Below, one piece after another: positions 274-50,498 of a stretch of DNA of 64,000 nt. Each line of letters opens with the position of its first letter. The stretch's first letter is position 1. This DNA is from Eledone cirrhosa (lineage: Eukaryota). A model generated the notes under the pieces. It did not search any database and had not been told where the DNA came from. It saw only the letters and a list, made by a program, of their open reading frames with translations. Made by a program: the position numbers and the translations under genes. The stretch is taken from the NCBI GenBank assembly GCA_964016885.1, contig OZ024744.1, positions 97,340,001-97,404,000 on the forward strand. Direction: 5' to 3'.

Positions 274-729
274 AACAGTCTATATTCTCCTTTGTAATCC
301 TTTCATTTGTAACCGCTCTGCTTATATTCTCGCCCACTAAATATTAACGCTTCCGATATTTAACCCTGTAGGCACAAGTATTGAGCACAAATGCACCAGC
401 TTTTGGCAACTAACTATATGTATCGCTTATCCCTTTAAACCTCTACTCTCTCACAATACTAAACTATTCTATATAGATAGATAGATTAGATAGATTTCTT
501 TATTTGCCACAAGGGCGCACAAGAAAAGGGAACAATACAAAGACATGCCGGGGATTTTACAATCATACGTGTAAAAAATATAAAACAAACAATTACAACA
601 ATCGAAATCCCCAATAGGGGGGAAGCACGACAAATGGGTTGTTTAATACCCCGTCGATAGAACAACCCTCAGCTCCAGGAGCGTGTTGTTCAAGTGCTCC
701 TTTCTTCCTTTTGCTCTCTTCTTTAACCT

Positions 730-3700
730 ACAGGCTTATAAAAAGAGAAGGCCCAATCACTCGAGCCATTTTCGCTTCATTCGCCCACCTTTACTGGGGT
801 GCAGTGCCACTCTCTGCACTCTGATTCTCCTTCTAAAGTGATACTTAAAGAAGGGAATCAATTGTTGTCCGGAAAGAAAGGCATCTGTCCTCAGTCCTCT
901 CAATCTCGTCCACCATATAACTTCTTTCACCATAGCCACTGTACAGAGGAAAACCGCCCCTCTTTCGTTTTTGAAAGAGGCTGGCGGTTTGATCCTTACT
1001 ATGGAATCGGCAGTCAACTGGATTTGTCCCATACGCGACAACAGTTGTTCTGCGTAGTTCCACAGGTCGCTTACGCCCGGGCAGTGTACAGTTGCGTGCA
1101 GGACTGTTTCAATGTCCTGCGCACATCTTGGACACGTCCTCTTGGAAGGATTCCTGCCGGGCATCCGTGCCTGTAGATCTTGTCACGAACCGGTAGAGCT
1201 CCTCGGTAGCACTGCCAGGCCAGGGACCTCTGGAAGTTGTCAATAGGTCCCAGGCGGAAAGTCCTACCAAACAGACTGGTGAGCTCATCGTCTTCGACGC
1301 CCAGAGTCTATCTGAGCACGTCGTCGCCCTTGTAACGTACAATACCTCTATAGAATGTCGAAGTGGAGTCTCCACTGATTGCTGTGCCCGCTTGCCAGAG
1401 GACTGTGAGCGCCTGAGCGCATTCAATGTGCCAGGCGCCCATCGTTTTCGGTCTTTTCTTGACCCAGGACTGCAGCTCCGTCAGCGAGACGAGCTGTGGG
1501 AAAGCCTGTCTCACAAACGGTGCCCACACTGGTTGGAGGTCGGTGAGGAATACCTGGAGATGCCGCAGCCTCAGCGCATGTTTGCGCATCACCCGCCACG
1601 GCATTCCCAGCCCTCCGTTGGAAGGGTGCTGACAGCAGACGGATCTCCTCACCAGCGGAGCCTGCTTCTTCCACAGAAACTGGAAGAGCATGCGTTCCAT
1701 CTTGGCGAGGTGTTCACGAGGACAAGGCACGACAGTCGAGCGGTAGTAGATGACGGACGCTATGAAAGTGTTCGTCACCTCCGCTCGACCTTTCAAGGAT
1801 AGTTTGCACTCTGCCCACTTCTGGGGAGTGTAAACACCTTGGCCGTGACCTCGTTCCAGTTTTTCTCCACCTGGAGGTCTGGACCGAACCAGACCCCGAG
1901 CAATTTCACCGGTCCCTGCGTCCAGCGTTCAACGACGCTGTCGGACGTCATCGGTTTGCCTCTCCACGTACCGAGTTGCAAACCGACAGACTTGTCCGGG
2001 TTTAGTTTTGCTCCCGTCAGCGTTTTGTATTCTTTCAGTAAGTTGCCGATCTCCCCGATTTCCGAGGTTTTCGACACCATTGCTGTAACGTCGTCGGCAT
2101 AAGCCGACGCCGATTTGCGCAGTCTCGGTTCTAGTGGGATGCCCTGCAACAGCTCCAATTTCCGCAGTAGTGGCTCTAGAGTCAATACATACAGAATGGG
2201 GGAGAGAGGGCACCTCTGTCGAATGGAACGTGTGATTGCGAACGGCTCCGATAGGTAGCCGTTCACCTTGACCTTGGTGTGCATCGCCTCGATCCAGCCT
2301 TTGAAAACGGGACCGAAACCGGCCGCCTTGAGAACCGCTTCCAAGTATCGATGGTCGACCCGATCGAATGCCTTAGACTGATCCAAATTGATCAGCGCCC
2401 CACCGAAGCCGGGTTTACTACCCACCCTCTCTATGATGTATCGCATGAGGTGGGGGTTGTCGTGTATGGACTTGGTCGGGATTGCACACGTTTGCGCTTT
2501 CCCTACCAGGTTCTCGACGACAAGCGCCAACCTCGTCGATAGCACCTTGGCCAAAATCTTTAACTCTGTGTTGAGCAGAGTTATGGGCCTGAAGTTGTTA
2601 ATTTCGTCCCCCTTGTTCTCGTCTTCCCTGATCAGCGTTTCTACGCCCTTGCCTGCAGAACTGGGAATTCTCCCGTTCTGCTGCCAATTGCAGTAGACGG
2701 CTTCGAGGACACCTGAGAACAAGTCCGGCATGCCTATGTAAAACTCGTAGGGTAGACCATCTAGACCGGGTGACTTGCGTTTCCCGCAGCGGCTCAGAGC
2801 GTCCCGTATCTCAGTGTCCGTGATTGGTCTTTCGCAGAACTCGGCGTCCGTGTTCGAGAAACGCGGCAGGCCGTCGAGGTATGAACTAAAGTCCATTGCC
2901 CCGTTCGGCTCACCGTCTTTCTGCTCAAACAGTCGCGCTAAGTACTGCTGAAAGGCCGCGCACATTTGCTTGGAGTCAAGTAGCACGCGTCCGTTTTGGT
3001 CTTTCAAAGACCGAATCGTGGACTTGTTGCCACTTTTTGCCTCCGCCACTCGGGCCCAGCTGACAGCTCTTCGCTCCTTCGTTTGCTAGAGCACGTGTTT
3101 TGCTTCTGACCACGCAGCCTTCGTGTTTCGCATCGAAGAACTCGTCCAGTACCGTTCTTGACGCTAACACTCTAACCGCGTTTCCACTACTAAGTGCCTC
3201 CTCTACCTTGGCTACTAGTTCTCTTTCTATTCTGTTTTTCTTTAAGGCTAACTCTCTGCTATACCCTATCGATTCTATTCTAATTGCTTTCTTGAGAGAG
3301 TCCCACCATCTAATGTTGACGATGGCTCCCGTTAATTGTTGCTTGACTAGTCTACTTCTCCGTTCACTGTAAGCTTTACGTGCCGGCAACGACACGTTCA
3401 GCTTCCAGTATCTGGGTCCCTGTCTATGTATTCTATCACGGTTGACTAAGCAGACGACTAATTTGTGATCTGAATAGGCAACCATGTGCATTCGTGGACA
3501 GCTTAACATCTCATTGTCCCTTTCTCTAATGAAGAACCTATCTAAATACGATCTAGATGTTCCGCTGCGGTTTGCCCACGTCCACTGTGGTGCAGTCGGG
3601 AAATCCAGTCGATACCTATCGGCCAGTTGCAATTGGCCGATTAAAGTTTTGAGGCTGTTGCACCCCTCCCCCTCTACTGGGACATGCTCCCACATAGTCC

Positions 3701-4149
3701 CATCGTGCATCTAGGATACCATTCCAGTCCCCCAGTAAGGAGCGAGACGTTCCCAGAAAAGACTCTAGACGCTTAAAGAAGTCTGGCCGTGATTGCGATT
3801 GCCCAGTCGGGGCATAAACGGCCACCAGTCTGAAGGCTCCACCTCCAATACTGTTCACGTCTAGGACTACCAGTCTACCCTCCGGGTCCACGTGTACTTG
3901 CTGTACTTCGACGTCCAGGTTCTTCCGAAACATGACAGCCACTCCACCTCCACCTCCTGGCTGACAGAGAGATGCGTAGATCTCAAAGTCGTCGAAGATA
4001 TGGGTTAGTTGCTGTCTGTTGTGGATCCTGGACTCGGTGATGGCTATCACATCCATACTGTGTAACCTAAGGTCGTTTAAAAGTTGGCCCTTTTTCCAGG
4101 GCATCCCTAGGCCACGCACATTCAGGCTTCCAACTCGTAAACTAGCCAT
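730..4149 (-). pseudogene. Tx1 copy 1 ORF2 (APE endonuclease + reverse transcriptase + zinc finger), broken by frameshifts
   Basis: Consecutive minus-strand ORFs 3616-4149, 2976-3710, 1793-3049, 1308-1796 and 757-1164 tile APE, RT and CPRC..H..HC domains. Confidence 0.93.
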
Positions 4150-4191
4150 GTTGGTGAAGAAGAGTTAGAGAAAAAGGACGGAAAGGTGCAC

Positions 4192-6217
4192 TTACCTTTT
4201 CGTTTCCTGGAGATCGGGTTGTTCAATCTCCATTTGGGTGCTGGATGGGGTGTTGGGTGGAGTGGCGAAACATTTTAACAGGACGCGGTTGATGGGTTTC
4301 TGGCAGGGATTGCCCACGTCCTGTGAAAATTTATTTTTTAGGTATCTATAGGTCTTCATAGAAACCCTTATAAGTTTAAGGTGTGGAGACGATTCTGCTT
4401 TGACGAGAGTTTTGCCCTCCGTCTCCACCTTGGGGTTTTGGAAGATGACCTCCATCAAACTCTTGTTGTTTGTGTTGATGTATGCGTATTGTTGTTTGTG
4501 TTTTTGTTGTGTTGTTTTAGTTTGTTGTTCGTCCGGGAGTTTTCTTTTTATGGTGGGTGCTTGTGTTTGGGGTGGTGTTGGTGTTGGTTTTGCTGGTAGG
4601 AGGATGTTTTACTGCGGTGTTGTTTGTGTTGTTGTTTGTGTCTGTGGTTGCGTGTTGGAGTTTTCGGGGTTTTGTGGTGTCTCTTTTTTTTGTTTTTTAG
4701 ATTTCCGAGGCTCTCCCTCTTCACTTAAAGAAGGCGAAGCAGCCTCATCTGTCGATGAATAATCATTGTCAGGAGTGTGGGGTAGGGGTATGTTGTGTGG
4801 TGGTGGTGTATCGGTGTGTGTGTTTGTGGTAGGGTTTGATGGAGTGGGATGGGGTGGGGCTGTGTTCTTCAGGGGTGTTGTCTGTGTTTTTTCTGTTGTT
4901 GGTTGAGTGGCTGTTTGTTTTGGTGTGTTTGCTTGTTTCGTGAGTTGTTGTTGTTGTGGTGGTGGTTGTTTTGGTGTTGATGTTGGTAACAATCTTTTCT
5001 TTTGTATTGTTTTGGTTAAGCGTGTTTGTAAAGGGCAGGAGGCCTTTATGTGTATGGTGCTATTGCAACGAAAGCAATGTGGTTTTCGTCCCTCAACTGC
5101 AAATTTTATGTGGCTGTTGTTGTCCACCAACACTTTTTCTGGTACTTTGGAGATTCTTTCCGGGCTCATTTGCACCAGAATCTCCAAATTTGTACCAAAC
5201 CAGGTGTGTCTGGTTGACTTTTTGCTGGAGAGAATAGTGTCTTTTCTCTCCTCTAAAAATCCTGCCAATATCCACCAAATATTAATATTTGGTGGTATGT
5301 TTGAAACTCTAATTTGTTGTGTCCTGGGAAGGTATGTATGGAAAAAGGTGTATTTTTGTGACAGTATTGGCGTCACTGAATATCTTTGTGCAAGGGCCTC
5401 GCTTTTGAGGAGTAGCGAAATACTCCCGTACTGTTTGGCCCTCTGCATAAAGTCAATGTCTGGCAATATCTTTATTAAGGTTGCCTCAATTTCCCCTTGA
5501 CTGAGGAATGTTGGTCGTTTTGTTACATTTGAAAAAGTTCTGAAGGTAACTGTCCTTCGAAATGTTTCCAGACGAATTTCTGGTGGTGAGTTTATCTGAA
5601 ATCCCCCGTTTTCACCGAAAGTGATAAACTCCTTTGCTTCAGAGAGCATCTGTTTCGCATTGGAGATATCGAGATCCTTGAATTCTTGTGTCTTGATGAC
5701 TGTTTGCGCAAAAGTTTTTTTGGTGTTGTTGTTGTTGTTGTGGTGGTTGTTGGGTTTTCCGTTTGTAGTTGTGTCAATGGTTTTATTTTCTGTTGTTTTT
5801 TCCGTCTGTTGTACTATGTGTGGCTCGATCTTGTTTTTATTTTTGTTGTTCATATTGGTTTCCATGGTGACGCCAATACATGCGGAGTTAGAAGTAACGT
5901 TATTATTATTTGTGACTGTTTCTGTATAAGTTATTTTGTTGTTGTTGTTGCTGTTGCTGTTGTTGTTGTTGTTGTTGTCGGGTTTTCCGTTTGTAGTTGT
6001 GTTAATTGTTTTTTCTGTTGATTTTAGTGTGTGTTGTATACTGTGTGGTTTACTGTGCGATTCAATTTTGTTTGTGTTGTCTACTTCACTTTCGTTACAT
6101 AAAACTTTGTTGTTAACTACCTCGATTCAGGCAAAATTTTTAGCAACGTTAAAGTCTATTTCTTCTTTTCTTTTTCCTTCTTCAACGCTCGTTCGCGTTC
6201 TTTGTACGTTTGCCATT
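4192..6217 (-). pseudogene. Tx1 copy 1 ORF1 (Gag-like, zinc knuckle CFRCNSTIHIKASC), disrupted
   Basis: ORFs 4609-5865 and 4192-4458. CX2CX4HX4C motif and Thr/Asn/Pro-rich linkers. Homologous to ORF1 of copies 2 and 3. Confidence 0.85.
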
Positions 6218-6442
6218 GCTGATGGCAAAATGTTAAACATTTTTAAACAGTTTTCAAATTAATTTCAAATAAAATTTTCGCCCCTTTGGGAGCGAAAAAA
6301 TGAGATTGCCACCCAGCTGTCAATTCAGCCTGGGAGTTAATCTACAAAACAATGTGTTTTTTTAAACAAGAATTTCTGTTTTTTGTAAAAAAATTGACAA
6401 AAACTTACCAGCAAAATTGTGTGCGTCCAGCTACCAAGAGAA

Positions 6443-6512
<70 letters not shown>
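6443..6512. repeat. (GATA)n microsatellite between Tx1 copies 1 and 2
   Basis: Direct reading. Confidence 0.98.
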
Positions 6513-6751
6513 TTCTTTATTAGCCACAGGGGCACAAAAGAAGGGGACAAATACAAAGGGGGAAGTTTACATACAATAAAAACGTGTAAAATGTTATCAC
6601 AAATGGAATTTAAAAAGTTAGTCGATTTTCCCCAATAGAGGGAGACAGTTTATATGGGTAACACATACCCCCGAAAAAAAATGTGCAACCCTCATCTCCA
6701 GGAGTTACGAAGAGTTTGTACTCCTTTCCTCTCCTCCTCCTTTTCCTCAAC

Positions 6752-9700
6752 CTACAGGCTGATATAGAGAGAAGGTCCATTCACTCGGGCCATTCTCGCC
6801 ACTTTCACCCACCTTTCATAAAACTTGCTGGGGTACAGCACCTCTCTCTCCATCCTGATTCTTCTTCCAAAGTGGTATTTGAAAAAAAGAATCAGTTGTT
6901 GGCCGGAGAGAAAGGTGTCTGACCTCAGCCCTTTCAACCTTGTCCACCATACAACCTCTTTCGCCATAGCTATCACACAAAGGAAAACCGCCTCTCCTTC
7001 GTTTTTGAAGGAGGGTGGCGGTTTGATCATGACAATGGACTCGGTGGTCAACTGGATTGGTCCCACCCGCGACAATAGTCGTTCTACATAGCCCCACAGG
7101 TCAGTGACGCCCGGGCAGTGTATGAATGCGTGCGCGACGGTTTCTTCGTCTCGCACGCACCTCGGACAGATCTTTTTTGCAGGGTCCCTGCCCGGGCGCC
7201 CATGTCTGTAGAGCTTGTCTCGAACTGGTAGAGCTCCTCGGTAGCACTGCCAGGCCAGGGACTTTTGGAAGTTGTCCATCGGTCCCGGGCGGAAGGTCCT
7301 ACCGAACAGACTGGCCAGTTCATCTTCCTCTACGCCTAGAGTTTCACCGAGCGCGTCGTTGCACTTGCTGCGGACCAACCCTCTATAGAATGACGAAGTG
7401 GAGTCTCCACTGATCGCCGGGTCCGCCTGCCAGAGGACTGTGAGCGCCTGAGCACATTCGATGTGCCAGTCGCCCATTTTCCTCGGTCTTTGCTTGACCC
7501 AGGACTGCAGCTCGGTCAGCGAGACGGTTGTCCGGTGAGGAATACGCAGAGATGCCGCAGCCTGAGCGCGTGTTTGCGCATCGTCAACCACGGCATCCCC
7601 AGCCCTCCGTTAGAAGAGTGTTGGCAGCAGATGGATCTTCTCACCAAAGGAGCCCGCCTCTTCCAAAGGAATCGGAAGAGCGCGCGCTCCATTTTGGCGA
7701 GCGTTTTGGCTGGACAAGGCACGACGGTCAAGCGGTAGTAGATGACGGACGCTATAAAAGTGTTCGCCACCTCCGCTCGACCTTTCAAGGATAGTTTGCA
7801 CTCGGCCCACTTCTGGGTGAGTGCAAACACCTTGGCCGTCACTTCGTTCCAGTTCTTCTCCACCTGGAGGTCCGGACCAAACCAGACCCCGAGCAGCTTT
7901 ACCGGTCCTTCCGTCCAGCGTCCGACGACGCCATCGGAAGGCATCGGTTTGCCTCTCCACGATCCGAGTTGCAAACCGATGGACTTGTCCCGGTTCAGCT
8001 TCGCTCCTGTGAACCTTTCGTATTCCTTCAGTAAGGTGCCGACTTCCTCGATTTGCGAGACGCTCGACACCATTACTGTCACGTCGTCGGCGTAGGCCGA
8101 CGCCGCTTTCCGCAGTCCCGGTTCCAGAGGGATGCCCTGCAATAACTCCATCTTCCGCAGTAGTGGCTCGAGAGTCAGTACGTACAGAAGGGAGGAGAGA
8201 GGGCATCCCCGTCGAATGGATCGCGTAATATGGAACGGCTCTGAGAGGTAGCCGTTCACCTTGACCCTTGAGCAGATGTTGCTGTTGTGCATTGCAGCAA
8301 TCCAGCCCCTGAACACGGGTCCGAAGCCTGCCGCCTCGAGCACCGCATCAAGGTAACGATGGTCAACCCTATCGAAAGCCTTAGACTGATCCAAGTTAAT
8401 CAGGGCCCCCACCGAAGCCGGGTTTACACCCTACCCTCTCTATGATGTATCGCATGAGGTGGAGGTTGTCGTGTATGGACCTGGTCGGGATTGCGCATGT
8501 CTGCGCTTCTCCCACCAGGTTCTCGACGATAAGCGCCAGCCTCTTTGCCAACACCTTGGCCAAAATCTGTAACTCTGTGTTTAGCAGAGTTATGGGCCGG
8601 AAGTTGCCTATGTTATCCCCCTTATTCTCGTCCTTCCTGATCAGTGTGACCACGCCCCCCGGTTACGGAACTGGGAATTCTCCCGTTCTGTTGCCAGTTG
8701 CAGTAGACCGCTTCCAGGAGACCGGAGAATAAGTCCGGCATTGCTACGTAAAATTCGTAGGGTAGACCGTCGAGACCTGGAGATTTGCGTTTGCCGCATT
8801 GGCTCAGTGCGTCCCCTATCTCAGCGGCTGAAATCGGCTTTTCACAGAACTTTGCCTCGCTGTCCGAGAGTCGCGGCAGGCCGTCGAGGTATTGACCGAA
8901 ATCCATAACCTCTCCCGGCGCGCCGCCCCTCCCGAACAGTTGAGCAAGTGCCACTGAAAAGCCGCACACATCTGCTTCGGCTCACGTATCACGCGTCCGT
9001 TTTGGTCCTTCAAAAACCGAATCGTGGACTTGTTCCCACTTTTTGCCTCCGTCACTCGGGCCCAGTTAACAGCTTTGGCTCCCTCGTTTCCCAGAGCATA
9101 TTTTGCTTCTGACAACGCAGCCCTCGTGCTTTGCGTCGAAGAACTGGTCCAAGGCCGTTCTCGTTGCTAGCACGCTGGCTACGTTGCCACTTCTAATTGC
9201 CTCTTCTACTTTATCTACCAGTTCCTTCTCGGTTCTATTTCTATCTAACGCTAATTCTTTACTAAAAACTATCGAATCTAATCTAACTGCCCTCTTGAGA
9301 GAGTACCACCATCTGTTGTTGGCAATGGCTCCTGTCAAGTGCTGTTTAACTAAAGTGCTAATCCGTCTACTGTAGGCTTTGCTTGTCGGTAACGACAAGT
9401 TCAGCTTCCAGTAGCCAGGTCCTTGTCTATGGGTTCTATCAAGGTTGGCTATGCAGGTCACTAGTTTGTGATCTGAATAGGCAACCATGAACATTTGTGG
9501 ACAGCTTAACATGTCCCTATCCTTATTTCTAACTAGAACCCTATCTAGGTACGATCTAGATGTTCCGCTACGATTAGTCCACGTCCACAGTGGCGCAGTC
9601 GGAAAATCTAGTCGATATCTATCGGCCAGGTCAAATCGGTCGATTAACTGTTTGAGGCTGTTACACCCCCCTTTATCGGGACATGCTCCCACATAGTCCC

Positions 9701-10148
9701 AACGTGCATCTAGGATTCCATTCCAGTCCCCCACTAAAAGCAAGGAGCGGGACGTTCCCAGAAAAGTCTCTAGACGTTTGAAGAAGTCTGGCCGCGGTGT
9801 CCCGGATGGGGCATATGCGGCCACCAGCCTGAAGGCTCCACCTTCACTACCGTCAACGTCTAGGACCACCAGTCGACCCTCCGGGTCCAGACGTACCGTC
9901 TGTGTTACGAGGCCCAGGTGTTTCCGCAGCAAAACGGCAACTCCGCCCCCACCCCCCGGTTGACAGAGAGATGCGTAGATCTCAAAGTCATCGAAGATGG
10001 GGGCCAGCTGTCACTCGCTGTGGATCCTGGACACGCAAATGGCTACCACATCCATACTGTGCGACCTGAGGTCGTTTAAGAGTTTGCCCTGTTTCTAGGG
10101 CATCGCCAGGCCGCGTACGTTCACACATCCAACTCTTATATTGGCCAT
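6752..10148 (-). pseudogene. Tx1 copy 2 ORF2 (APE-RT-zinc finger), frameshifted
   Basis: ORFs 9066-9932, 8816-9115, 8622-8969, 8396-8653, 7516-8412 and 6752-7591 carry APE and RT motifs. Confidence 0.93.
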
Positions 10149-10181
10149 GTTGGTGCTGAAAAGTTAAAAGAGGAAAAGTGA

Positions 10182-12101
10182 TCACTCACCCTTCGTCTCC
10201 TGGGGACCAGGCCGCACGATTTCCATGAAGGTGTTGGAGGGGTTGTCTGGGTGGGTGGTGGTTTCCGGCGGGGTGGGGACGGAAATGTTTGGTGGGGTGG
10301 GGTCTGGTGGGATAGGGGTGTCTGGGGTGGGGAGACATTTGAGAAGGACGCGGTTGAGTGGTTTCACGCAGGAATTCCCCACATCCTTCTCAAATATTTC
10401 TTTTACGGACCTATAAGTTTGTATAGGGACCCTAATCAGTTTTAGGTTCAGTTTTTTGCTATTTTTAATAGAGTGGATGAAAGTTTTCCCTTCGGTTTTC
10501 ACCGAAGGGTCGTTCGTGATGGTCTCCATTAGTGTTTTGTTTTCAGTGTTTATGTAAGTGTAAGTGTAATTTTCTTGTGTTGTGTTTGTATTTGTCTGTA
10601 GTTCTTGTGTGTGCTTTCGTTTTGTTGTAGGTATTTTGTTTTCAGGAGGTGGGGGTTTTGTTTGTGATGTTTTTGTTGTTTGTGTTGGTGGTTTTATGTT
10701 TGTGGTAGTGTTTGCTGGTTTTTTGCTTTTGTGATGTCTTTTCTTTCTTTTTGAGCGATGGGGTTCTCCCTCGTCTTCACTGGGTGATGGCGAGATAGCC
10801 TCATCTGTTGTATCGTCTGTGTGATTGGGGAGGGGTATGTCTTGGGAGCTGTTGTGTCTGTATGTGATTTTGCAGTTGTTTTAGGTGGAGTGGGGTTGGG
10901 TGGAACTGTGTTTGTTGTGGTTATTTTGGTGTGTTGGTGTTGTTGTTGTTGTGGTGGTGTTGGTGGTTGTGTTGTTTTGATGGGTGTCGGCAGAAGAGCC
11001 TTTTTTTGATTCATTAATTTAGGACAGGAAGCCCTCAGGTAACCCCTGCTAAAGCAGTGGTAACATGAAGGCCGCCTACCCTGAACCGAAAAGTTTATGT
11101 AGGTGAGTCCGTCCAGGAGTACACGTTGTGGGATCATAGCTATTCGCTCTGGGCTCATTTGCACCAGAACTTCAATGCTAGTCCCATTGAATACATCTCT
11201 GGGAGACTTTCCTACTGACAGTATTCTGTCTTCATCAAAATTGATAAAGCCACACAGTATTCACCATATGTTCACCTTTGGTGTGACACTCGTCATTTTG
11301 ATCTTTTGTGTCCTTTTTCCCATGTATGTAGGGAAAAAGGTGTACAGGTTGGATACAATTTGCGACACAGAGTAATTTTGGGCCGTCAATTGATCCTTCA
11401 TGAGTACCGAAATACTCCCAAAAAGTTTGCTTCTTTGAATGAATGCAATATCATTCATTGAATTTTTGAAAACCAGTTCAATTTCTTTCTGTGACAATTG
11501 GACTGGTTTTCGGGTAGAATTGGAAACTGTCCTAAAAACTATCATTTGTAGAGCTGTTTCCTTGCGAATTTCTACCGGAGAATTGATGCTGAAAGCACCA
11601 TTTTTTTCGAAAGTGACATATCTCCTAGCATCCTTTAAAAGTTGTTCAGCATTTGTAATGTCGAGATATATCAGTTCCTCCTTTTTTTTTAACTGTCTGT
11701 GCAAAGGAAATTTTTGGTTTCTTTGTGGAATTATCCGTGTTGGTGGTGTTGTCATTATTGTTGTTATTCTTGTTGTCACCGATGTTGATATTATTCGTAT
11801 TTTCCTTGGTGTTGTTGTTGTCTTTGATGCTGGTGTTATTGGTGTTGTCTTTATTTTTTTCTTTGTTGTTGTTATCATTGTTGTTTTTATCATCATTATT
11901 GGTGTTGCTGTTATTTTTGTTGTCATTGAACTGTTTGGTGTCATTTGTGTTGTTTGGATATGAATTTGTTTTTGCATTTTCATTTCGTCTTTCCATCTCT
12001 ATAGTGTCTATTGAGAAGGAAGGGGAAGAATACGATGTTGACTGCGAGCTTTGTAGTCTTACCGCCTCTCCACCACCATTATCGTTGGACGCAGCGTTCA
12101 T
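10182..12101 (-). pseudogene. Tx1 copy 2 ORF1, frameshifted
   Basis: ORFs 11646-12101, 11261-11983, 10694-11164 (CYHCFSRGYLRASC) and 10182-10529. Confidence 0.85.
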
Positions 12102-12317
12102 AACGTAATCAAACTTTTACAATATTTTTTCAAGATTCGATGGAGAAAAAATTTTTCAAACGGATATTTCGCCCCTGTAGGGGCGAAAATGAGTTGACCC
12201 ACCACCTGAAGGTCCAAATGGGGGGTCAAGTTACATAATAATATAAAATTTAACAAAAAACTCACGTTTTTTTCTTACATAAATTAACGGAAACTTCTCC
12301 GCGAAGTGACACACGTC

Positions 12318-12325
12318 TGATAGAG

Positions 12326-12421
<96 letters not shown>
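12318..12421. repeat. (GATA)n microsatellite
   Basis: Direct reading. Confidence 0.98.
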
Positions 12422-29970: not shown

Positions 29971-30104
29971 TATCCTGCCCCGTATCTAGCCGGTGAGAAT
30001 TTTAAGTCAATCTTCAACAAAGGACAACAGACAAGAGGAGAAGAAGAGGATCTTTTTGGTATTTGTGTTGACATTAACTAGAACAAAATTTTGATTTTTT
30101 TTGT

Positions 30105-30700
30105 TTGAACATCAAAACAGTTGAGAACTTTAAGTATCTTGGTGCATGGATGCACAGCTCACGCAAGGACTTTGAAGTTAGAAAAGCATTAGCGTGGTCG
30201 GCATGCCACAAGCTACTGAAGGTATGGCAGTCCGACCTAAACCGCAAAATCAAGGAACGCCTCTTCCTAGCAACTGTTGAGTGCATCCTGCTTTACGGCA
30301 GTGAACCGTGGACTATTGACAAAGTGTTGTGCAAGAGACTTGACGGATGTTACACGAGGATATTGAGAATGGCTCTCAACATTTCTTGGAAACAGAAGCT
30401 GACAAATAAGGAACTATACAGATCACTACCACCAGTCTCAAAAAGAGATGCCTGCCGAAGAATGAAACTGGCTGGGTACTGCATCCGTCATCTAGAAGAG
30501 ACAGCAACTCAACTTGAGTTCTGGAAACCGGCGGTCGGATAAAGGAGTGTGGGAAGACAGACCGTCTCATTCATTGCTGAGATACCCTGCTGAGAGATGC
30601 CAACATTGATAACATCGACGAACTGAGAAATGTCATGCTCGACCGGGACGATTGAAGAAAGTGTGCTGAATCTTTGCGAGTGTAAACTCGGCCGAAGAAG
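30105..30700 (+). mobile_element. 3' fragment of an RTE-type LINE
   Basis: VENFKYLG..LLYGSEPWT..LDGCYTRILRMALNISW post-RT region. Confidence 0.85.
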
Positions 30701-36304: not shown

Positions 36305-36535
36305 AACAATCACAGCAACAATACATCTAGCAATCATAACAACAATACATCTAACAATCACAGCAACAATACATCAAGCAATCATAACAACAATACATCT
36401 AACAATCACAGCAACAATACATCTAGCAATCATAACAATAATACATCTAACAATCACAGCAACAATACATCTAGCAATCATAACAACAATACATCTAACA
36501 ATCACAGCAACAATACATCTAGCAATCATAACAAT
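36305..36535 (+). repeat. 48-bp tandem repeat x~5 (encodes NNHSNNTSSNHNNNTS)
   Basis: Direct reading and translation. Confidence 0.9.
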
Positions 36536-36541
36536 AATAAT

Positions 36542-39500
36542 GATTTCATTTATTAGCCACAAGGGCCGACATGTAGGGGACAATACAAAGACAGGGACAG
36601 TGGGGGTTTACAATAAGGTCGAGTAAAATTGCACAATGGCAAGACTAATTTAACAATGAAAATATAAAAATATAAAATAAACTATGCATAAATATAACAA
36701 AATAAATTCCCCGATAGGGGGTGGACGACCCTGGGGTGCTTCAGGTATCCCACCAATCCTGAACCACCCTGCGCTTCTAGGGCACCCAGGAGAGCACCCC
36801 TCTCCTCAAGTTAGCTAGCCTATAGGCGCATGGTCAGAGTAGGCCCATTCACACGAGCCATTCTCGCCATATTCACCCACCTTTTAGCAAATGTACTGGG
36901 GGGCAGCACTTCTCTCTCCACCCTCACCTTCTTTTCCAGGTGAAAGTTGAAGAAGTTGATGAGGGATTGGCCGAAGAGAAAAGTGTCTGTCTTTAGTCCT
37001 TTCAACCTGGTCCACCATATAATCTCTTTCGCAACTGCCACCAGACAGAGAAAAATTTCCTGCTCTTCCTGACCTAAGGAAGGTGGCGGCTCGATCTTCA
37101 CTATGGACTCGGCCGACGGCCGGATTCGTTCCACACGCGACAGTAGCTGTTCGACATAACTCCACAAGTCAGTAATGCACGGACATTGGACAAGTGCGTG
37201 CAGAACGGTTTCGTCGTTCTGTGCGCATCTTGGGCAGGTCCGTCTGACAACACTTCCGTGCCTGTAGAGTTTATCCCGAACTGGCAGTGCCCCCCGGTAG
37301 CACTGCCAAGCGAGGGATTTCTGGAAATTGTCCATCGTCCCCGGCTCAAAAGTCCTCCGGTACAGACTGGTCAGTTCGACTTCGTCGAGGCCCAAAGCTT
37401 CTCCGAGTGCGTCATCGCACTTGCCCACCACTAATCCTCTATAAAACTCGAGAGTGGAAGTTCCACTGATCGCATTGCCCGCTTGGTAGAGAGCAGTGAG
37501 TGCCTGGCAACATTCCAGGTGCCAGTCACCCAGTCTCGGTCTCTTCTTGACCCAGGATTGCAGCTCAGTCAAAGAAATGAGCTGCGGAAAGGCCCGTCTG
37601 ATAAACGGCGACCACACCTGTTCACCATTGAGGCGGAATATCTGGAGATGTCGCTGCCTCAACGCATGTCTGCGCATCATTAGCCACGGCATGTCCAGCC
37701 CTCCGCGTAGAGGGTGCTGGCAGCAGATGGACCGTCTCACCAACGGAACTTGTCCCCTCCACAAGAATTTGAAGAGGAGCCGTTCCAACTTGACGAGGCG
37801 CGGACGGGGGTAAGGCACGACGGTTAGGCGGTAGTAGATGACGGACGCGATGTACGCATTCGCCACCTCCGCGCGACCTTTCAGTGATAGCTTCCTCCCA
37901 GCCCATTTTTGGGTGAGACTGACTACTCTGCTCGTTACCTCGTCCCAATTCTTTTCCACCTTATAGGTCTGGTCCGAACCAAACCCCAAGCAACTTTACC
38001 GGTCCGTCCGTCCAGCGCCCCACGGCGCTGTTGGACGGCATGGGCTTGCCTCTCCAGGTTCTGAGCTGCAAGCCCACCGACTTTTCCGGGTTAAGTTTGG
38101 CTCCTGTCAACCTTTCATATTCCTTCAGTAAGATGCCGACCACCTCGATTTCTGAGGTGTTCGACACCATCACGGTGATGTCGTCCGCATAAGCCGACAC
38201 CGCCTTTCCACGTCCCGGTTCGAGCGGGATGCCCTGCAACAGCTCCAGCTTCCGCAGTAAAGGCTCGAGAGTCAATACGTACAGAAGGGAAGAGAGAGGG
38301 CACCCTTGACGGACCGGTCGGGAGAGCCGAAATGGTTCCGAGAGGTGGCCATTAACCTTGACCACGAGCGTGTGCCGCTGTGCATTGCAACGATCCAGCT
38401 TCTAAAGACGGGGCCGAAGCCAGCTGCTTTGAGGACAAACTCCAGATACCGATGGTCGACCCTATCGAATGCTTTCGATTGATCTAAATTGATCAGTGCC
38501 CCACCGAAGCCAGGTTTACACCCTACCCTCTCTATGATGTATCGCATGAGGTGGAGATTGTCGTGTATGGACCTGGCTGGGATTGCGCAAGTTTGCGCCT
38601 CCCCAACCAAATCCTCGACGACAAGCGCCAATCTCTTTGCTAACACCTTGGCCAAAATCTTAAACCCTGTGTTGAGCAGAGTTATGGGCCTGAAGTTGTC
38701 TAATGTATCCCTCTTGTTCTCATCTTTCCTTATCAGCGTCACCACTCCCCTGCTCACAAAACTGGGAATACTCCCATTCTGCTGCCAGTTGCAGTAGAGT
38801 GCTTCGAGGAATTCGGAGAACAAGTCTGGCATATTTATGTAAAGCTCGTAGGGCAGGCCATCCAAACCGGGTGACTTGCGCCTCATGCAGCCGACAAGGG
38901 CGTCCTGAATTTCGGCTGAAGTAATCGGCCTTTCGCAGCGCTCAGCGTCGACCGTCGAGATGCGCGGCAAGCCGTCAAGGTAGGGACTGAAATCCGCTAT
39001 TCTCTCTGACTCGCCACTCTCCCTGAACAACCGAGCAAAGTGCTGGCGAAAGGCCTCACACATCCGCTTGGAATCGCTTATCTCGTGTCCGTCTCGGTCC
39101 GCCAAAGACCGAATTGTGGTTTTATTACCACGCTGCGCCTCCACCACGCGGGCCCATCGAACAGCTTTAGTTCCCTCGTTTCTCAGCGCACGCGCCTTAG
39201 CTCTGACAATGCAACCTTCGTGTTTGGCATTGAAGAAATGGTCTAATGCCATTCTCGCCGCTAGCACGTCAGTTGCGATGCCACTACAAATAGCCTCGTC
39301 TAACTTATCTACCAGCTCCCCCTCCTTTCTATTTTTCTCTAACGCTAGTTCTTTGCTAAACTCTATCGAAGTTACTCTAATCTCTCTTTTGAGAGCCCCC
39401 CACCATCTGTTGTTGATGATCGCCCTGTCAACTTTTGCTTAACTAAATTGTTGACTCGGTCCCTGTAAGCCTTACGTGCCGGAAATGACATGTTCAGCTT

Positions 39501-42500
39501 CCAGGAACCCGGTTCCAACCTACGCGTTTTATTTAGGTCGACCGTACAGATCACAAATTTGTGATCTGAATAGGCGACCGTTTTAAAAAGTGGACAGCCC
39601 ACACTATTTCTATCTATTTTCCTAATGAAGATCCTGTCTATATACGATCTAGATGACCCCATTCGGTTGGTCCATGTCAATACTGGCACATTGGGGAAAT
39701 CTAGTCGATACCTGTCAGACAGTCAGAACTGGCTGAGTAGGTGCTTGAGGCTTTTGCACCCCCCGCTCCTATCGGCTACTCCCACACAATCCCAGCGTGC
39801 GTCTAAGATGCCATTCCAGTCCCCCGCTAACAGTAAAGGGCGAGACGTACCCATAAAGGTCTCCAGGCGCTTAAAGAAGTCAGGTCGTCCGGCCCCTGTA
39901 GGGGCGTAGACGGCCAGCAGTCTAAAGGCACCACCTTCGCTACTGCTCACATTCAAGACCACCAACTTACCGACCGGGTCCCGGAAGATCGACCTTACCT
40001 CGAGATCCAGTCCTTTCCTAAACAGCACTGCCACCCCACCCCCCATTCCCGGCCTGCTAACAGATGCGAAGATCGTCGAAAATGGGGGCTAGTGCGCGCG
40101 TGTCGGAAATTCTGGTCTCGCTTACGGCAATCACATCCATTTCCAGCGACCGGAGGTCTTTGAGCAGGCGACCCTGCTTCCAGGGTGACCCCAGGCCGCG
40201 AACATTTAAACTTCCTACTCTTAATATGGCCATATTGGTCAGCTAAGAGAGAGAGAGAGAGGGAAGGTTTACTTACCTCCCGGGTCTTGTGAAGGTCGGG
40301 TGGTTCAACCTCCATGGTTGGTGGGGTTTCTTTTGGGAACCCCTTTAAAAGTCTTGATGTGGGTTTCACATTCGGGGTTCCCACGTCTTGAGGAAAGCTC
40401 TCTCGAATTTCTTTAAAGGAATTGAGTGACATTCGGACCAGAAGCAAATCTTCTGGCACGCAAAATGTGCTCATTTCAAAAATCTCCCCCTCTGTTTGAA
40501 TGTCCTCGCTTCGCGCTAAGAGGGCCATCAGTTTATCGTTTGCCCTTCTGACAAGCACGAAGTTTTTAACTTTTTGTTGGTGTGGTTTTATTTGTTTTCG
40601 GTTTGGTGAAGGTGGTGGCGATGGTTTTGGTGGTGTTGTTTCGGGTATGTCTATGTTTGTTGCAGGTGTGGTGTCTGCAATTTCAGGTATTTGTGTGTTT
40701 ATTTGTACTTGTGTTTGTTTAGGTTGTTTGCGTTTCGGGGATTGTGGAGGTGGTTTCGATGTAGCTGTTGGTGATGATGTTATTGGGGAAGTGTCTGCGT
40801 TAGTGGTGTCTGTATTTTTTGTTGTGTGTGTTTTCGTGTTTTGCTGGGGCTTTTTTTTGTGAGTTTTCTCTGTTTTTTTTGCACTTTTGGGTTTTCCTTC
40901 ATCTTCGCTACTGGAAGACAAAGGGGCTGTGTCTGTGAGTGTCTCTGTGTCTGTGTGTGCGTTTATTGTTTTGTCTATGTGTATAATTGGGGGGGGGGGG
41001 TAGGGGGAGTGGGAGAGCTTTCCTCGTTTTCTCCTTGGATTGGTTTTGGTGTTGGTGGTGATCCGGCTGCTTTTGATGTTGGTGTCCGTGTTTTTGTTGA
41101 TGTTGTTTTTGGTGGTGGTGGTGGTGGTGCAGCTTTCCGTGCTGACACTGGCGTTGGCAACAAAGGAGGTTTGCGACCCCCTGCATTTTTGCGCTGAGGG
41201 CAGAAGGCTTGAAGATGCGTTGCTTCCCCGCAGACGAAGCAGCGTAGCCTTCTTCCATCAATCATTAGTTGGATTGTTGTCCCATCCTGCAAGCGGGCAA
41301 AATCCGGGATGTTATTCATATCCTCCGGTTTCATTTGGAGAAGAATCTCCAAATCCATTCCGGACCAGTCCTCTCTCTCTGTCCTTTTGATGTCTAGGAG
41401 GGCAGTGTCTGTCCCCTCCTCGATTACGCATCCCAGCAGCCACCATATGTTCATTCCTGGTGGAATGCTGGGAATGCGTACCTTCACTGTCCTTTTACCC
41501 ATATAGGACGGATGCATGATAATGCGTTCCGTTCTGCAGGGGTCACCGAGTGCTTAATAGCGAGAGCCTCGGTTTTGAACAGTACCGAGATGGTACCGAA
41601 CTGTTTGGCTCTTGCTTTATACTCTATGTCACTTCCGATGCACTCCAAAGCAGCCTCTACCTCTGCTTGGCTCGCAAGTTCCACTTTTCGTGTCTGCACC
41701 GAAATACATCGAAAGAGCACCGTCCTCCTTTGCATGGCCGCTATTGCCTCGTCCGAGATGGTCAGGTTTGCCCAGGATTTCTCCCGTTTAATTAGCCTCC
41801 ACGCTTTGGCCAACTGTTCTTCTTTATCGCTAATATCAATATCAATTCAATAAGCGCTTTGTTTTTGCTGCTGCTGCAGCAAATGTGGTGTTTCTGATGC
41901 TCTTGTTGTTGGTGTTGTCATTCTTGCTGTTGCCACCGCCATCCTTGTTTACATTGAAGCTGTCGGTGTTATTGTCGTTGTTGTTGTGGTGGTGGTGGTG
42001 GTGGTGGCGGTGGTGGTGATGTCGTTTTCAGATGATACTGCTGCTATGGCAGAAGGTTGTGATGGTAGCTTTTTAGTTTTGCCTTCACATTCAGTAGAGT
42101 GGATGACAGGCATGACTGTAGCCGTCGTAGTCATGGTGAAATCTGCAGTGGCTGCCTTTAAACCTTTGACCTGAACGTTGTTTACCGTTTCAAGGTCGAA
42201 AATTTCCATAATTTTCTTTTGGTGGGGAAGCGATTTTTTTCGAAATTTTTAAAAATAAATCTGAATATTCGGGCTTAAAGCCCGAATATTGAGAGGTATC
42301 CCTCTCTTTAAATCAAGATGTGTACCTTAAGTTTCGTTAACGAGAAGAAAATACAAAAAAAATGACACTTTAAAACAGCTTAAAGTTACGAACCTTTTCC
42401 CCCGCAGGCTTGTCTGTCTTCACACACCTGTGATCCCACTACATCTTTTATGCACCCATACTTTGCATTTGGGACATAAAATGGAGTTTCTACCTACTCC

Positions 42501-42588
42501 TTTCCTACACACTGAGCATGGCCATTTCCCGGATGGGACCGGTGCCCTATTTTCCTTCCTACAAACTAGAACTTTAGTCTTAAACAGG
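36542..42588 (-). mobile_element. L1/Tx1-clade retrotransposon, copy 3 (frameshifted), possible 13-bp TSD taacaataataat
   Basis: ORF1 40277-42209 (CFVCGEATHLQAFC) and ORF2 36820-40233 (MAILRVGSLNVRGL, RT, zinc finger). TSD candidates 36529-36541 / 42589-42601 are low complexity. Confidence 0.93.
42426..42581 (-). mobile_element. Internal fragment of an RTE-type LINE ORF (Cys-rich finger) at the 5' end of Tx1 copy 3
   Basis: Translates KTKVLVCRKENRAPVPSGKWPCSVCRKGVGRNSILCPKCKVWVHKRCSGITG. Confidence 0.75.
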
Positions 42589-45545
42589 TAACAATAATAA
42601 TAATGCTAATGATAGGAACAACAACAACCATAATAACAATAATAACAATAATAGCAACACACACAACTATGACGATAGATATAATGACAACCCCTTAGAG
42701 AAACTATTCTTCAACCCAGCTGACAAGACATATAAGATGGGTAATATCTATCCTACGAGGTTACCCTTTAATAAAAGAGTTTGCATACCACAACAAATAG
42801 ATGACGAGACAGAGGCACAGTTCACCATAGCTAGAAATAAGATTAGACAAATAGTAGACAGGTATACTAAGAGACAGAGCAGACCAGAGGCACAACAACT
42901 TGGGAGGAAACCTGTAGAAGGCTTGGTTAGCCTCAAGCAGCGCACAAGGGATGGTGAGGTAGTATGTCTACCCACGGATAAGTCTGGTAGGATGTCAATA
43001 GATAGCGTGCCGAACTACATCAAGGCTATGCAACCCCACATCACCAACACGAGCGAAATTGCACAGCAAACACATGATGGGAGAGAGAAAATCCTCAACG
43101 CTCACATGATGATGTGGATCGACATCCTAAAGCCAAGCAGACGCACTGCCAACAACTTCCAGGCGTCTAACAATGGCATACCACCCTTGTATGGGCTCCG
43201 CAAAAACCACAAGACAGTCGACGACCCGACAACAGGACCACCAACGGAGCAAATATAGCTAGCAACTACAGGATCTCCTACTTCCTCTCAATGGTTATAC
43301 GCCCCATAATGAAGATGTCCCCAGATGTATGTGACAGTACAGAGGACCTCCTCAGCAGAATTAGTGAGTGCAACAAAAACAGGAACCTATCCAACTGCAT
43401 AATAAGCAGCACGGATGTGGTATAACTGTACCCATCCATTAACATTGATTTTGCTGTGGAAACATGTGTGGAGATGATCATTGAGAGTGAGGTGGAGTTC
43501 TGCGTGAGGTGGGCCTCCTACTTAGACTTACCTACGACACTGACTACCTAGACAGCCATGACCTTAGACGTTTCTGCCCCAGTAGACCCATAAGAGGTAG
43601 ACCCCCCACCATAACCTCAATGGCTAAAATTCTCCCATGGGAAGGTGGATTTGGGGGACCAAAGCTATACGGACCCCCCAAAACAATGATCAGGTAAGAA
43701 AAATGGTCGCACATGCAATAGGGGCTAGTATCAAAACTACCCTAAAGGGCCACATATTCAAGTTCAACGAGAAGATCTACACCCAAAATGAGGGAGCAGC
43801 CATTGGCGTCAGCATAGCTGGTGACGTTGCCAACCTTTTTATGGTATGGTGGGAAAGGACACTTAAAGATCTCCTTAATGAAAGCTCCATAGACCCCATC
43901 ATGTACTCTCGTTACGTAGACGATATCAATATAGTTATAAGAACATCCCCACTAGAGAGCACTAACAAGTTTGATTTAGAACGTAGCACAATGGAAAGCA
44001 TCCAACAGATAGCTAATTCCATACACCAGAGTATAACTGTAACTATCGACTACCCTTCCAAACACCTTAACAATAGACTACCTGTATTAGACACGGAACT
44101 CTGGATTAACACTATAGATGAGAGAGCCCAAATTCTCCACTCACACTATGCTAAACCCATGGCCTCCAAATACCTGATACTCAAAAACTCAGCAATGTCC
44201 AGTAGTGCTAAGTTTAATATTCCAATCGCAGATTTGGTACGAGTGATGAAGAATGTGTCCCGCATGTGCGACCCAACAGAAATGGAAAGACACATCCAAC
44301 ACTTCATCAACCGCATGCAGTTCTCTGGCTACAACCAAAGAGACAGAGTCAGAGTATACGAAGGAGCCATGGAAAAGTATAAGACCCTCATAGAACTGGA
44401 CATGAACGGAATTTTCCCATTATACAGGAGAAAATCATGGAATAGCTTAGATAGGGCTAGACATAAGATAGGGAAAGTCACCTCATGGTACGACAACTAG
44501 AGATACCAGAGTGTCATGTTTGTGGACGCTACCCCTGGAGGGAAATTAGCTAACCAGTGTAGAAAGGCCCTGAGAAAGACCCACTTAAAGATTAAGGTGG
44601 TAGAAAAGCCAGGAACCACCATAAAATCCCTGATCAGCAAAACCTACCCTTTTAAGAAAACCCACTGTACTAATAGGAAATGTATCATATGTAAGGTAAA
44701 CCCCCGGATAAACTGTAAAACTAGAAACGTAGTCTATAGCATAAGATGTACAGAGGGTACTTGCAGAAACATGACAACAACATACATAGGCGAGACAGCT
44801 CGTAGCATAGGTGAAAGGATAGACCAACACTGGGGGGAACTAAAAGGACGAAAAAACGGGTCAGTACTATACGAACATGCCAGACAACAACACGACGGTA
44901 ACATAGACAACATAGAAATTAGAATAATATCTAAACATAGAAATGACCCAACAGATAGGCAAATCAGAGAGGCCAGTGAAATAGAACTTAGAAGGCCAAG
45001 GCTAAACAGAAAGAATGAATGGAATAACAACAACACCCAAACAAACAACACTGACCTAAGAGAAGTATAAATAAATAAATAGATAAATAAATAAATAAAT
45101 ACATACACAAGCACAATAACAACAAACACATATAAACACACACTAGTAAAGATAGAATACATTAACCAATACACAGTCACCCAATCACGAACACACATCA
45201 AACAAAACACTATTCACACACGCAAACGCATGCGCAAAGAAGACAAAATAAAATAAACAAATAAATAAATATATAAACAGACTAAATAAAGATGGCGTAG
45301 AAAATACAATGTAACGGGAGGAAACAATAGCACCACTGACGATGTTGCAGATGTGCAACGAAAGAACTTTGATAAACTATATATATGTGTTTGTGTCTAT
45401 ATTGTATCTGTATTATTTTTGACCGTTGGTCAGTCATGGCAACATTGAGGACCGAATAAATTAGATTACCGATATAAAAGACACAGAAGCGAAAAGCGAA
45501 AACCAACCAAACAGTGAGTGTGTTCTGTTATTAATTCTGGCAATA

Positions 45546-48477: not shown

Positions 48478-48506
<29 letters not shown>

Positions 48507-48514
<8 letters not shown>

Positions 48515-50498
48515 TAAAAAAATAATGAATAAAACAATGAAACAGTTCCTTATATTAAACAAAAAAAGTTCATTATTTAACGATCGTTTCTGGGATATAT
48601 ATGTGTTAGAATTGGCATGTATATTTAACAGATCTATGTACAAAATTATACAAAATTATACAAACTATCAGAATTAAATATACATACCAACTCATATATA
48701 TGCCGTCTTCAGAAATAATGAAATATATTTATTGATAATAACAACAATTCAAAATTACAGGTCTGTTTGGGAACAGAGTTCAAATTGACCAATGGAAACA
48801 CAAAAAGTTTATACAGTTAGGTGTGTGTATATATGTAAGTAACTTCGTTCACAGATATGCATAAAAATATATGTTCACATGCATACGCATGCCGAAAAGA
48901 TGTATGTAAATACAAAAATTCAGGGCTAATGTCTCTGTATGTTTATAATCTACAGATAAAATACATATACGCATATAAACATATAAATATAAAAATAAAT
49001 ATATACACATTCATATACTCACACATATACATACATTCACACACACACGCGCATATACGCATAAACATACACACAACCACTAACATACATACACACACAC
49101 ACTCCCACACACATATATGTGTATATATTATTATCATAAGCATATGGACATTAATGCGCGCACATAAACACTGCCACACATATTTAGATCCAGATACAGA
49201 AAGTAGGTGGGGGGGGGGGGGGAAGAGGTCAGTATTTACTGGTGTCAGCAAACTGCCTATTTATAAATGTATCTATAAATTTAGAAATAAAACCTATAAA
49301 AATAATAAACAACATAGAAACCGTAATAGACGAGTTACTTGGTATAATGCTCCATTTAATTTACAAATTAAGGATAATATTGCTAAAAAAAATTGTTATA
49401 TCCTAGAGAAAAACTTCCCGCCAAACCACAAATACCATCAAATCTTAAATAGGTCTACAGTTAAATTCTCATACTCAACAACCAATAACATAAAACAAAA
49501 TATAAGTGCCTATAATGCATATAAATGTAAGAATACCATAAGTATACCACCAATACATCAAACTAACCATAATATCTCCTCAAATACAGAATTAACGAAA
49601 GGTTGTAACTGTAGAAACAAAGCAAACTGCCCATTAAAAGGAAATTGTCTTGTTAACAACATAGTGTATAAATGTAATGTTAAAACTAAAGATTCTTTTT
49701 GCTCATATATAGGAGCTACTTCTAACAATTTTAAGGTAAGGTTTAATACCCACAAACATAGTTTTAAAAATGCCGCACTGGCTAATACAACATCTCTAGC
49801 AGAAAAAATCAATAGTTATAAAAATAAGAATATAGAATATGATATGACCTGGAGTGTGCTCAAAAGAGCCACCCCTTATCAAAATAATAGAAATGAATGT
49901 AGATTATGTTCCCAAGAACTATTTGAAATAATGAAATCTAAGGATATCCTATTAAATAAACGACAGGAATTAATTATATCGTGTAATCATAAACTAAGAA
50001 AAACATTTAAATATTATAAACCTAATTAATAACATTATTTTAGATATTAATATATAATTTAATTTAAATGTTAGATAACCTATAAATTTAATTTAATTAA
50101 AATTCTACTACAGATGAGATTATAAAATATTGTGTAATCATAAATTGTGAAAAACTTTTAAATATTACTAATATATACTTTGTAAATTAATTTATAGATT
50201 AATTTTAATTTATTTAACCTTTTATTAAAATTCCTTTACAGATAAAATATAACAAAATATCGTGTATTCAATGACAGAGAAATAGTTTTTAATATTATAG
50301 ACCTAATTAATGTACAATTTAGAAATATATTTATAATTTGGTTTTAATTTGGTTAACCTAAAAATTTAATTTAATTGGCTTAAAATTAAAATCCTAATAC
50401 AGATGGATTGCAGAGTGTCATGTAATCATAGACTGAGATAGGTTTTTAGATGTATACCTAGTTAATATATTCTTTGCAATTTTTGAAAAAATATGTAT

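Follow-up and report, generated by a model that had tools for sequence, protein, structure and literature searches.

In the Arabidopsis retrotransposon EVD (Ty1/Copia), the available part of PMC5580714 describes splicing that yields a subgenomic RNA for the structural protein (shGAG), with U1 also blocking premature termination of the full-length RNA. For human L1, the available parts of PMC2896524 (SpORF2) and PMC5860796 (SpIREs) describe RNAs spliced from donors in the 5' untranslated region (UTR), with removal of the 5' UTR or of open reading frame 1 (ORF1), and the SpIRE products are called dead ends in the latter. The Tx1 families Kibi, Koshi and crocodilian Tx1 are known for their microsatellite targets, (TC)n, (TTC)n and (TTCC)n/(TTTC)n, and the available part of PMC4494074 makes no mention of splice sites in them. 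Here we analyze a stretch of 64,000 nucleotides (nt) from Eledone cirrhosa (contig OZ024744.1, positions 97,340,001 to 97,404,000 of the forward strand; hereafter the window), which contains three long interspersed nuclear elements (LINEs) of the L1/Tx1 group, each with a splice-donor motif, GTRAGT, at the end of ORF1. With a probability that we put at about 0.45, this motif is a clade-specific U1-binding site that is in part spliced to an acceptor coinciding with the ORF2 end or lying past it, giving an ORF1-only mRNA, while a predicted long-range duplex shields the full-length RNA. The elements and their donors (a slash marks the exon-intron boundary) are as follows:

495..6443, minus strand: LINE copy 1, L1/Tx1 group, decayed, with approximate ends and (TCTA)n on its flanks
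6500..12325, minus strand: LINE copy 2, decayed, with approximate ends, head-to-tail with copy 1 over a (TCTA)n tract
36535..42300, minus strand: LINE copy 3, a more diverged subfamily with an uncertain 5' end
4190..4195, minus strand: ORF1-end donor of copy 1, AAG/GTAAGT, phase 2, overlapping the ORF1 stop
10184..10189, minus strand: ORF1-end donor of copy 2, AGG/GTGAGT, phase 1 here and phase 2 in relatives with a +1 allele
40271..40276, minus strand: ORF1-end donor of copy 3, GAG/GTAAGT, phase 0

An earlier note on this DNA had given the letters and coordinates exactly, and GTRAGT indeed stands at the end of ORF1 in all three copies (4195, 10189 and 40276). Copy 1 reads AAAAG/GTAAGT at 4195-4190, with the ORF1 stop TAA inside the donor, TT at 4158-4157 and the ORF2 ATG from 4149, and excision of the 39 nt would preserve the frame. 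Copy 2 reads AAGG/GTGAGT at 10189 with a CAG ending at 10156 (34 nt, one base off frame), and copy 3 reads GAG/GTAAGT at 40276 with a TAG ending at 40243 (34 nt, GT-AG, in frame). The donor phase thus varies from 2 (copy 1) through 1 or 2 (copy 2) to 0 (copy 3). With 69 occurrences of GTRAGT per 128 kb (both strands), the chance of finding one within 13 positions of the stop is about 0.7% per locus, the three window copies being homologous and hence not three independent draws. Four DNA sequencing runs were aligned to the copy 1 junction (80% likeness, differences counted from 1%). Among the best 40 of 69 variant rows the donor hexamer shows a single rare variant (at 4190) and the adjoining positions 4196-4212 upstream of it show none, while variants are listed at 20 or more of the 32 spacer positions 4157-4188. 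Diverged subfamilies, seen as consensuses of loose alignment ends, likewise keep the donor (14 records in run X6, 33 reads in X17, 31 reads in X18). By these comparisons the donor is a constrained motif that hardly changes between related copies, in contrast to the variable spacer.

A second lineage with the same donor came to light in a scan of genome contigs, where host-derived contigs (CAXXMW records, G001) carry an intact relative in arrays, represented by L084. Its reverse transcriptase (RT) is 46-47% identical to that of the window copies, and a quick tree unites the window copies, the second lineage and the protein P0056 in one clade (SH-aLRT 100). The ORF1 of the second lineage is homologous to that of the window copies, and the C-terminal parts give no significant match. 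All 119 stretches (95 overlapping loci with 8 distinct variants; subfamilies 81-94% identical) carry AAG/GTAAGT one base past the ORF1 stop, with 13 nt left to the ORF2 ATG. Another host contig (G002) carries four decayed copies, one of which (L196) keeps the donor 3 nt after its TAG stop; in L115 and L196 the donor sequence is retained when shifted relative to the stop. The junction of the second lineage contains neither an acceptor nor a pyrimidine tract, and no local intron is possible there because the donor lies only 13 nt before the ORF2 ATG. Outside the clade, GTRAGT occurs within 80 nt in 2 of 44 junctions, at the chance level of about 1.9 (the set comprised 45 other junctions, some of them duplicates or second matches, with one in-clade junction, L187, left out). 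Judged from these alignments, the donor is clade-specific, independent of ORF1 coding and, in the second lineage, unable to start a local intron. Two side observations concern the source of these sequences: bacterial metagenome-assembled genomes carry host-derived contigs (the CAXXMW records of G001; G002:C16), and in G001 the intact LINEs form head-to-tail arrays with 6.4-6.9 kb spacing, no visible target repeat and 5' UTRs that differ among subfamilies.

The earlier note had read the junction as selection on splicing or U1 binding, with a local intron of 34-39 nt or with distant partners; selection on a U1-type donor and the possible distant partner are retained here, and the local intron is not. 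Such an intron, whose removal would fuse ORF1 and ORF2 in frame, draws some support from copy 3, which is GT-AG and in frame as it stands, and from the +1 allele of copy 2, which would also be in frame. It had been left to subfamily comparison whether TT in copy 1 is a private mutation, an ancestral TT being taken to speak against the intron; the four DNA runs show that AG is absent family-wide. The A>T difference at 4158 that AG needs is absent in all four (A>T sites number 1, 4, 1 and 1 per run, none of them 4158), and the full indel table of copy 1 (9 rows) holds no indel at 4150-4160. The common allele at 4158-4157 is TC (234/410 reads in X17, 250/339 in X18, 1848/18649 depth in X1, 0/723 in X6). 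Because there is no A>T at 4158, no indel and a common TC allele, the missing acceptor of copy 1 is a family trait. The phase of copy 2, by comparison, is neither plainly private nor fixed: a +1 allele, which gives the phase of copy 1, coexists with the other phase (149.9/208.1 depth in X6, 10/21 reads in X16, 0/8.35 in X4, and 47.3/27956 in X1, a figure that may carry bias from short contigs). The branch-like YTAAC does occur in two of the three window copies, as claimed, but in copy 1 it is a private variant (CCAAC is found instead in 11981 of 12076 X1 depth at 4167), and in both copies that carry it just 8 nt separate the putative branch A from the 3' end. Branch points normally lie about 18-40 nt before the AG. 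Among the features of a spliceosomal intron, the 34-39 nt segment therefore shows the GT donor in 3/3 copies and lacks a conserved AG and a proper branch distance. The phases differ between copies, and in the second lineage the ORF1 stop is followed by a spacer of just 13 nt. The four DNA runs contained no joint on the copy 1 junction, and none skipping 10156-10189 on copy 2 among the best 15 of 158, though the spliced product would be expected to retrotranspose. Loss of GTRAGT in related families, which the earlier note would also have held against its reading, is not the case, as the motif is kept in the related lineage. Taken together, the mini-intron is largely refuted and is the least credible of the explanations considered here. 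We also rejected an in-frame intron of 54 nt that would end at the next AG (4143-4142): that AG is lost in 159/392 X17 reads and the corresponding codon of copy 2 is AAT.

The junction is complementary to the end of ORF2. In all three window copies the best predicted partner of the junction, of about 700 windows, is the element's own ORF2-stop region, with the following arms:

4145..4207, minus strand: 5' duplex arm of copy 1, comprising the ORF1 end, donor, pyrimidine spacer and ORF2 ATG (4149-4147); TT at 4158-4157 pairs with AA
673..736, minus strand: 3' duplex arm of copy 1; its ORF2 stop TAG/G at 730-728 is a candidate distal acceptor
10144..10201, minus strand: 5' duplex arm of copy 2; the local CAG ends at 10156 and the ORF2 ATG is at 10148-10146
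6697..6760, minus strand: 3' duplex arm of copy 2, with the ORF2 stop TAG/G at 6754-6752
40229..40288, minus strand: 5' duplex arm of copy 3; the local TAG ends at 40243, in a TTAGCT/AGCTAA helix, and the ORF2 ATG is at 40233-40231
36765..36828, minus strand: 3' duplex arm of copy 3, with the ORF2 stop TAG/G at 36822-36820

The predicted energies are -46.9, -56.2 and -50.7 kcal/mol for copies 1, 2 and 3 (z-scores -5.7, -6.8 and -3.8), values matched by 1, 0 and 0 of 1000 shuffles. In two of the three copies the own partner beats the cross partner; the TTAGCT/AGCTAA helix is specific to copy 3, and the change from ACATG/CTGT to ATATG/CTAT in that copy is compensatory. In the second lineage the partner is formed by the last 60 nt of ORF2, which is the best or second-best window in 7/7 subfamilies (z-scores -2.9 to -5.2); of its 45 pairs 34 are invariant, 6 have one-side changes that still pair, 1 is changed on both sides and 4 contain breaks. 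Among outside elements, 0/13 have their best partner near the ORF2 stop. The partner thus lies after the ORF2 stop in the window copies and before it in the second lineage, and the 3' arms of the two are not homologous. In L084 we also noticed two invariant stretches of the 3' UTR, at about 7415-7430 and 7975-7990 (about 550 nt apart), whose complementarity suggests a second long-range helix, and, as a separate observation, a hairpin at the ORF2 end whose loop is TTAG, TTCG or similar.

The spacer pyrimidine tract and the local AGs are best read as parts of this predicted duplex. The same might be asked of the donor, as a by-product of the ORF1 stop codon and of a duplex that would serve to link the translation of ORF2 with the termination of ORF1: in both lineages the ORF1 end, the donor and the AUG all fall within the duplex, pairing in the second lineage takes in donor positions -1 to +5, and the run free of listed variants at 4196-4212 noted above extends beyond the donor. 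However, the +2 U of the donor sits in a G-U wobble in 9/10 elements, the +6 U is unpaired in 6/7 second-lineage subfamilies yet invariant, the pairing register differs among the window copies, and the donor sequence stays when it is shifted against the stop. The donor itself is not best read as duplex sequence, because partners that are non-homologous go with the same hexamer and a G-U wobble occupies +2; we regard this explanation as unlikely. Assignment of the pyrimidine tract to the duplex also bears on a further possibility, that a donor in the 5' UTR is spliced to the AG before the ORF2 ATG, giving an ORF2-only mRNA like human SpORF2 (available part of PMC2896524), with the ORF1-end donor in a regulatory role. 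Copies 2 and 3 do have a local AG after a pyrimidine tract, and donor-like sites are present in the 5' UTRs of copies 1 and 2:

6404..6409, minus strand: donor-like GTAAGT in the 5' UTR of copy 1
12260..12265, minus strand: donor-like GTGAGT in the 5' UTR of copy 2

Nonetheless, the family of copy 1 has no AG, the second lineage has neither a pyrimidine tract nor an acceptor at this place, and the duplex already accounts for the tract, which together make this a very improbable origin of the pattern.

Candidates for a conserved downstream acceptor exist in both lineages at different places, none of them common to both. In all three window copies YAG/G stands at the ORF2 stop, 3438-3468 nt from the donor. 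In the second lineage a pyrimidine tract with TAG lies about 230 nt into the 3' UTR (7/7 subfamilies and 3/3 G002 copies), and a further invariant donor, GTRAGTA, lies 14 nt after the ORF2 stop or overlaps it (71/71 stretches and 3/3 G002 copies; L084 7391-7640 and related G001 loci; L187, L196 and L197). This post-ORF2 donor and the pyrimidine-TAG site that follows it could possibly constitute a retained 3' UTR intron in a LINE, and an internal AATAAA lies downstream of the donor in the 3' UTR of 7/7 subfamilies.

In the mechanism that we propose, U1 snRNP would bind the ORF1-end donor and part of the transcripts would be spliced to a distal acceptor at or beyond the ORF2 end, removing the whole of ORF2 (about 3.45 kb) and leaving an ORF1-only mRNA. 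Nonsense-mediated decay follows a 50-nt rule, and the spliced RNA would escape it because only a few bases separate the donor from the ORF1 stop. Once the ORF2 end has been transcribed, the duplex would form and hide both the donor and the ORF2 AUG in the genomic RNA. ORF2p is known to copy its own RNA (cis preference), and the intron could persist because only the unspliced RNA encodes ORF2p. LINEs need far more ORF1p than ORF2p, a ratio that in known L1 cases is put down to inefficient ORF2 translation. A broader formulation, which we hold slightly more tentatively than the splicing proposal itself, is that of a LINE clade with a retrovirus-like splice switch, in which U1 sites end each reading frame, ORF2 is a facultative intron, and a duplex of 3.5-kb range between ORF2 start and end chooses between splicing and genomic RNA and gates ORF2 translation.

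Several observations weigh against distal splicing under control of the duplex. On the side of the duplex, the copy 1 arm pairs better with the partner of copy 2 than with its own, just 1/45 second-lineage pairs is changed on both sides with 4 broken, and synonymous change in the second-lineage 3' arm is not lowered (4/19 codons versus a background of 17%). On the side of the splice sites, the donor has been lost from three of the four decayed copies in G002, donor-like sites show no depletion in ORF2, the TAG/G of the window copies is largely explained by stop codon plus duplex (its pyrimidine tract is coding), and the second lineage loses the stop-codon AG in 12/71 stretches and in 3/3 G002 copies. 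Splicing to the ORF2 stop would give ORF1p tails of differing length (28, 1 and 2 residues in copies 1, 2 and 3, with a stop after 2 codons in copy 3). As regards products, no loose end with 3' UTR sequence was found at the copy 1 donor among the best 24 of 112 in the DNA runs, and neither the 119 stretches nor the distances between 40 listed ORF1 ends revealed an ORF2-less copy.

U1 might instead dock on the donor with no splicing to follow, its role being, for instance, to prevent premature polyadenylation, to aid transcription or to hold genomic RNA in the nucleus. Such docking accounts for the data nearly as well as distal splicing; we consider it possible, if the less probable of the two. 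Donor-like sites recur at several boundaries, namely in the 5' UTR (copies 1 and 2 and most second-lineage subfamilies) and 14 nt past the ORF2 stop, where the donor precedes the internal AATAAA in 7/7 subfamilies; the two lineages share no acceptor; and the EVD study (PMC5580714, available part) offers a precedent in its U1 effect on premature termination. Yet ORF2 contains almost no poly(A) signal to protect (the A[AT]TAAA count is 0 in 9/10 elements), and acceptor-like sites do exist downstream in both lineages.

Searches for proteins that could derive from spliced RNA gave little. A profile of the ORF1 C-terminus found no spliced-product protein among 721 and 7412 candidates, and a search for longer endonuclease proteins returned only one ordinary ORF2. 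Two of the best 150 endonuclease matches, P0106 and P0042, are extended by a long N-terminal part. P0106, in which a Tx1-like ORF1 is fused to the endonuclease, was discarded as RNA evidence since it is a gene model from a tick, labelled hypothetical; the fusion is probably a prediction artefact. The N-terminus of P0042 looks unrelated. Two sequence patterns were likewise set aside. The three different stop codons found at +3 to +5 after the ORF2 stop carry no weight, as the arm is rich in purines and 3/4 of the triplets with T before two purines are stops, and the 34-49 nt donor-to-CTAG cassette of the second lineage was dismissed as an intron since its invariant end is, by eye, complementary to an invariant 3' UTR stretch. 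Rfam gave 0 matches, and scans of viral sequences gave 0 and 3 distant loci, the three having no tblastn match to the endonuclease of the clade and being left unused.

Assignment of the window copies to the L1/Tx1 group is based on sequence comparison and architecture. Fragments of ORF2 match Pfam Exo_endo_phos, RVT_1 and zf-RVT, corresponding to an N-terminal apurinic/apyrimidinic (APE) endonuclease, the RT and a C-terminal zf-RVT domain; the separate ORF1 shows a CCHC knuckle (C-x2-C-x4-H-x4-C) in its translations, and AATAAA is found at the 3' ends. ORF1 of the window copies has no Pfam family match; it is homologous to ORF1 of the intact relative L084 (E 3e-8), for which the closest solved ORF2p is that of human L1 (E 6e-74). 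ORF1 identity is 46-50% between copies 1 and 2 and 34-42% between copies 1 and 3. Within (TCTA)n, copies 1 and 2 follow one another head-to-tail (6444-6500 and about 12326-12400), as expected for microsatellite targeting; the narrower Tx1 label rests on this target, on the architecture and on the earlier note, the RT tree containing no named Tx1 reference. The ORF1 of copy 3 (39998-40276, minus strand) has no stop in the spacer and runs about 90 codons into ORF2 in another frame. Elsewhere in the window we noticed fragments resembling, by eye, Penelope-type elements (weak RT matches, GIY-YIG-like ends) and an RTE-like C-terminus (20280-21317, plus; 24629-26650, minus; 42584-45067, plus; 30078-30539, plus), as well as long inverted repeats, possibly terminal repeats of mobile elements (48506-49312 / 52744-53545, 807 nt, 98.8%; 19288-19798 / 21589-22119, about 520 nt, 90%).

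In the literature covered, which leaves most subscription papers and the Repbase reports outside, we found no report of an ORF1-end donor in Tx1-group LINEs, and the available part of an octopus repeat paper (PMC13282606) describes no such LINE site, with 'splic' and 'intron' occurring 0 times. New in the present work are the family-wide refutation of the mini-intron and the second-lineage evidence for the donor. Donor and predicted duplex have been kept over roughly one substitution per RT site, and if the proposal is true, this LINE clade has put the spliceosome to use in expressing its own genes, in the manner of plant Copia elements. Like Kibi, Koshi and crocodilian Tx1 (PMC4494074, available part), these are LINEs inserted in microsatellites, with copies 1 and 2 in a different target, (TCTA)n. 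With human L1 (PMC2896524 and PMC5860796, available parts) they share membership of the L1 group, splice sites in LINE RNA and a donor in the 5' UTR; unlike in human L1, it is at the ORF1 stop that the donor is conserved, and splicing from it would remove ORF2. The closest functional parallel is shGAG of plant Ty1/Copia elements, where, as here, the structural gene ends at a conserved donor of the U1 type. According to the available part of PMC5580714, EVD, a long terminal repeat element, has a short intron close to its protease together with a coupled poly(A) site, as demonstrated by experiment, whereas the element described here is a two-ORF LINE known from sequence alone, in which the intron would comprise all of ORF2 (about 3.45 kb) and a duplex is predicted. 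By analogy, the mechanism would work like Copia shGAG splicing without being a member of that family.

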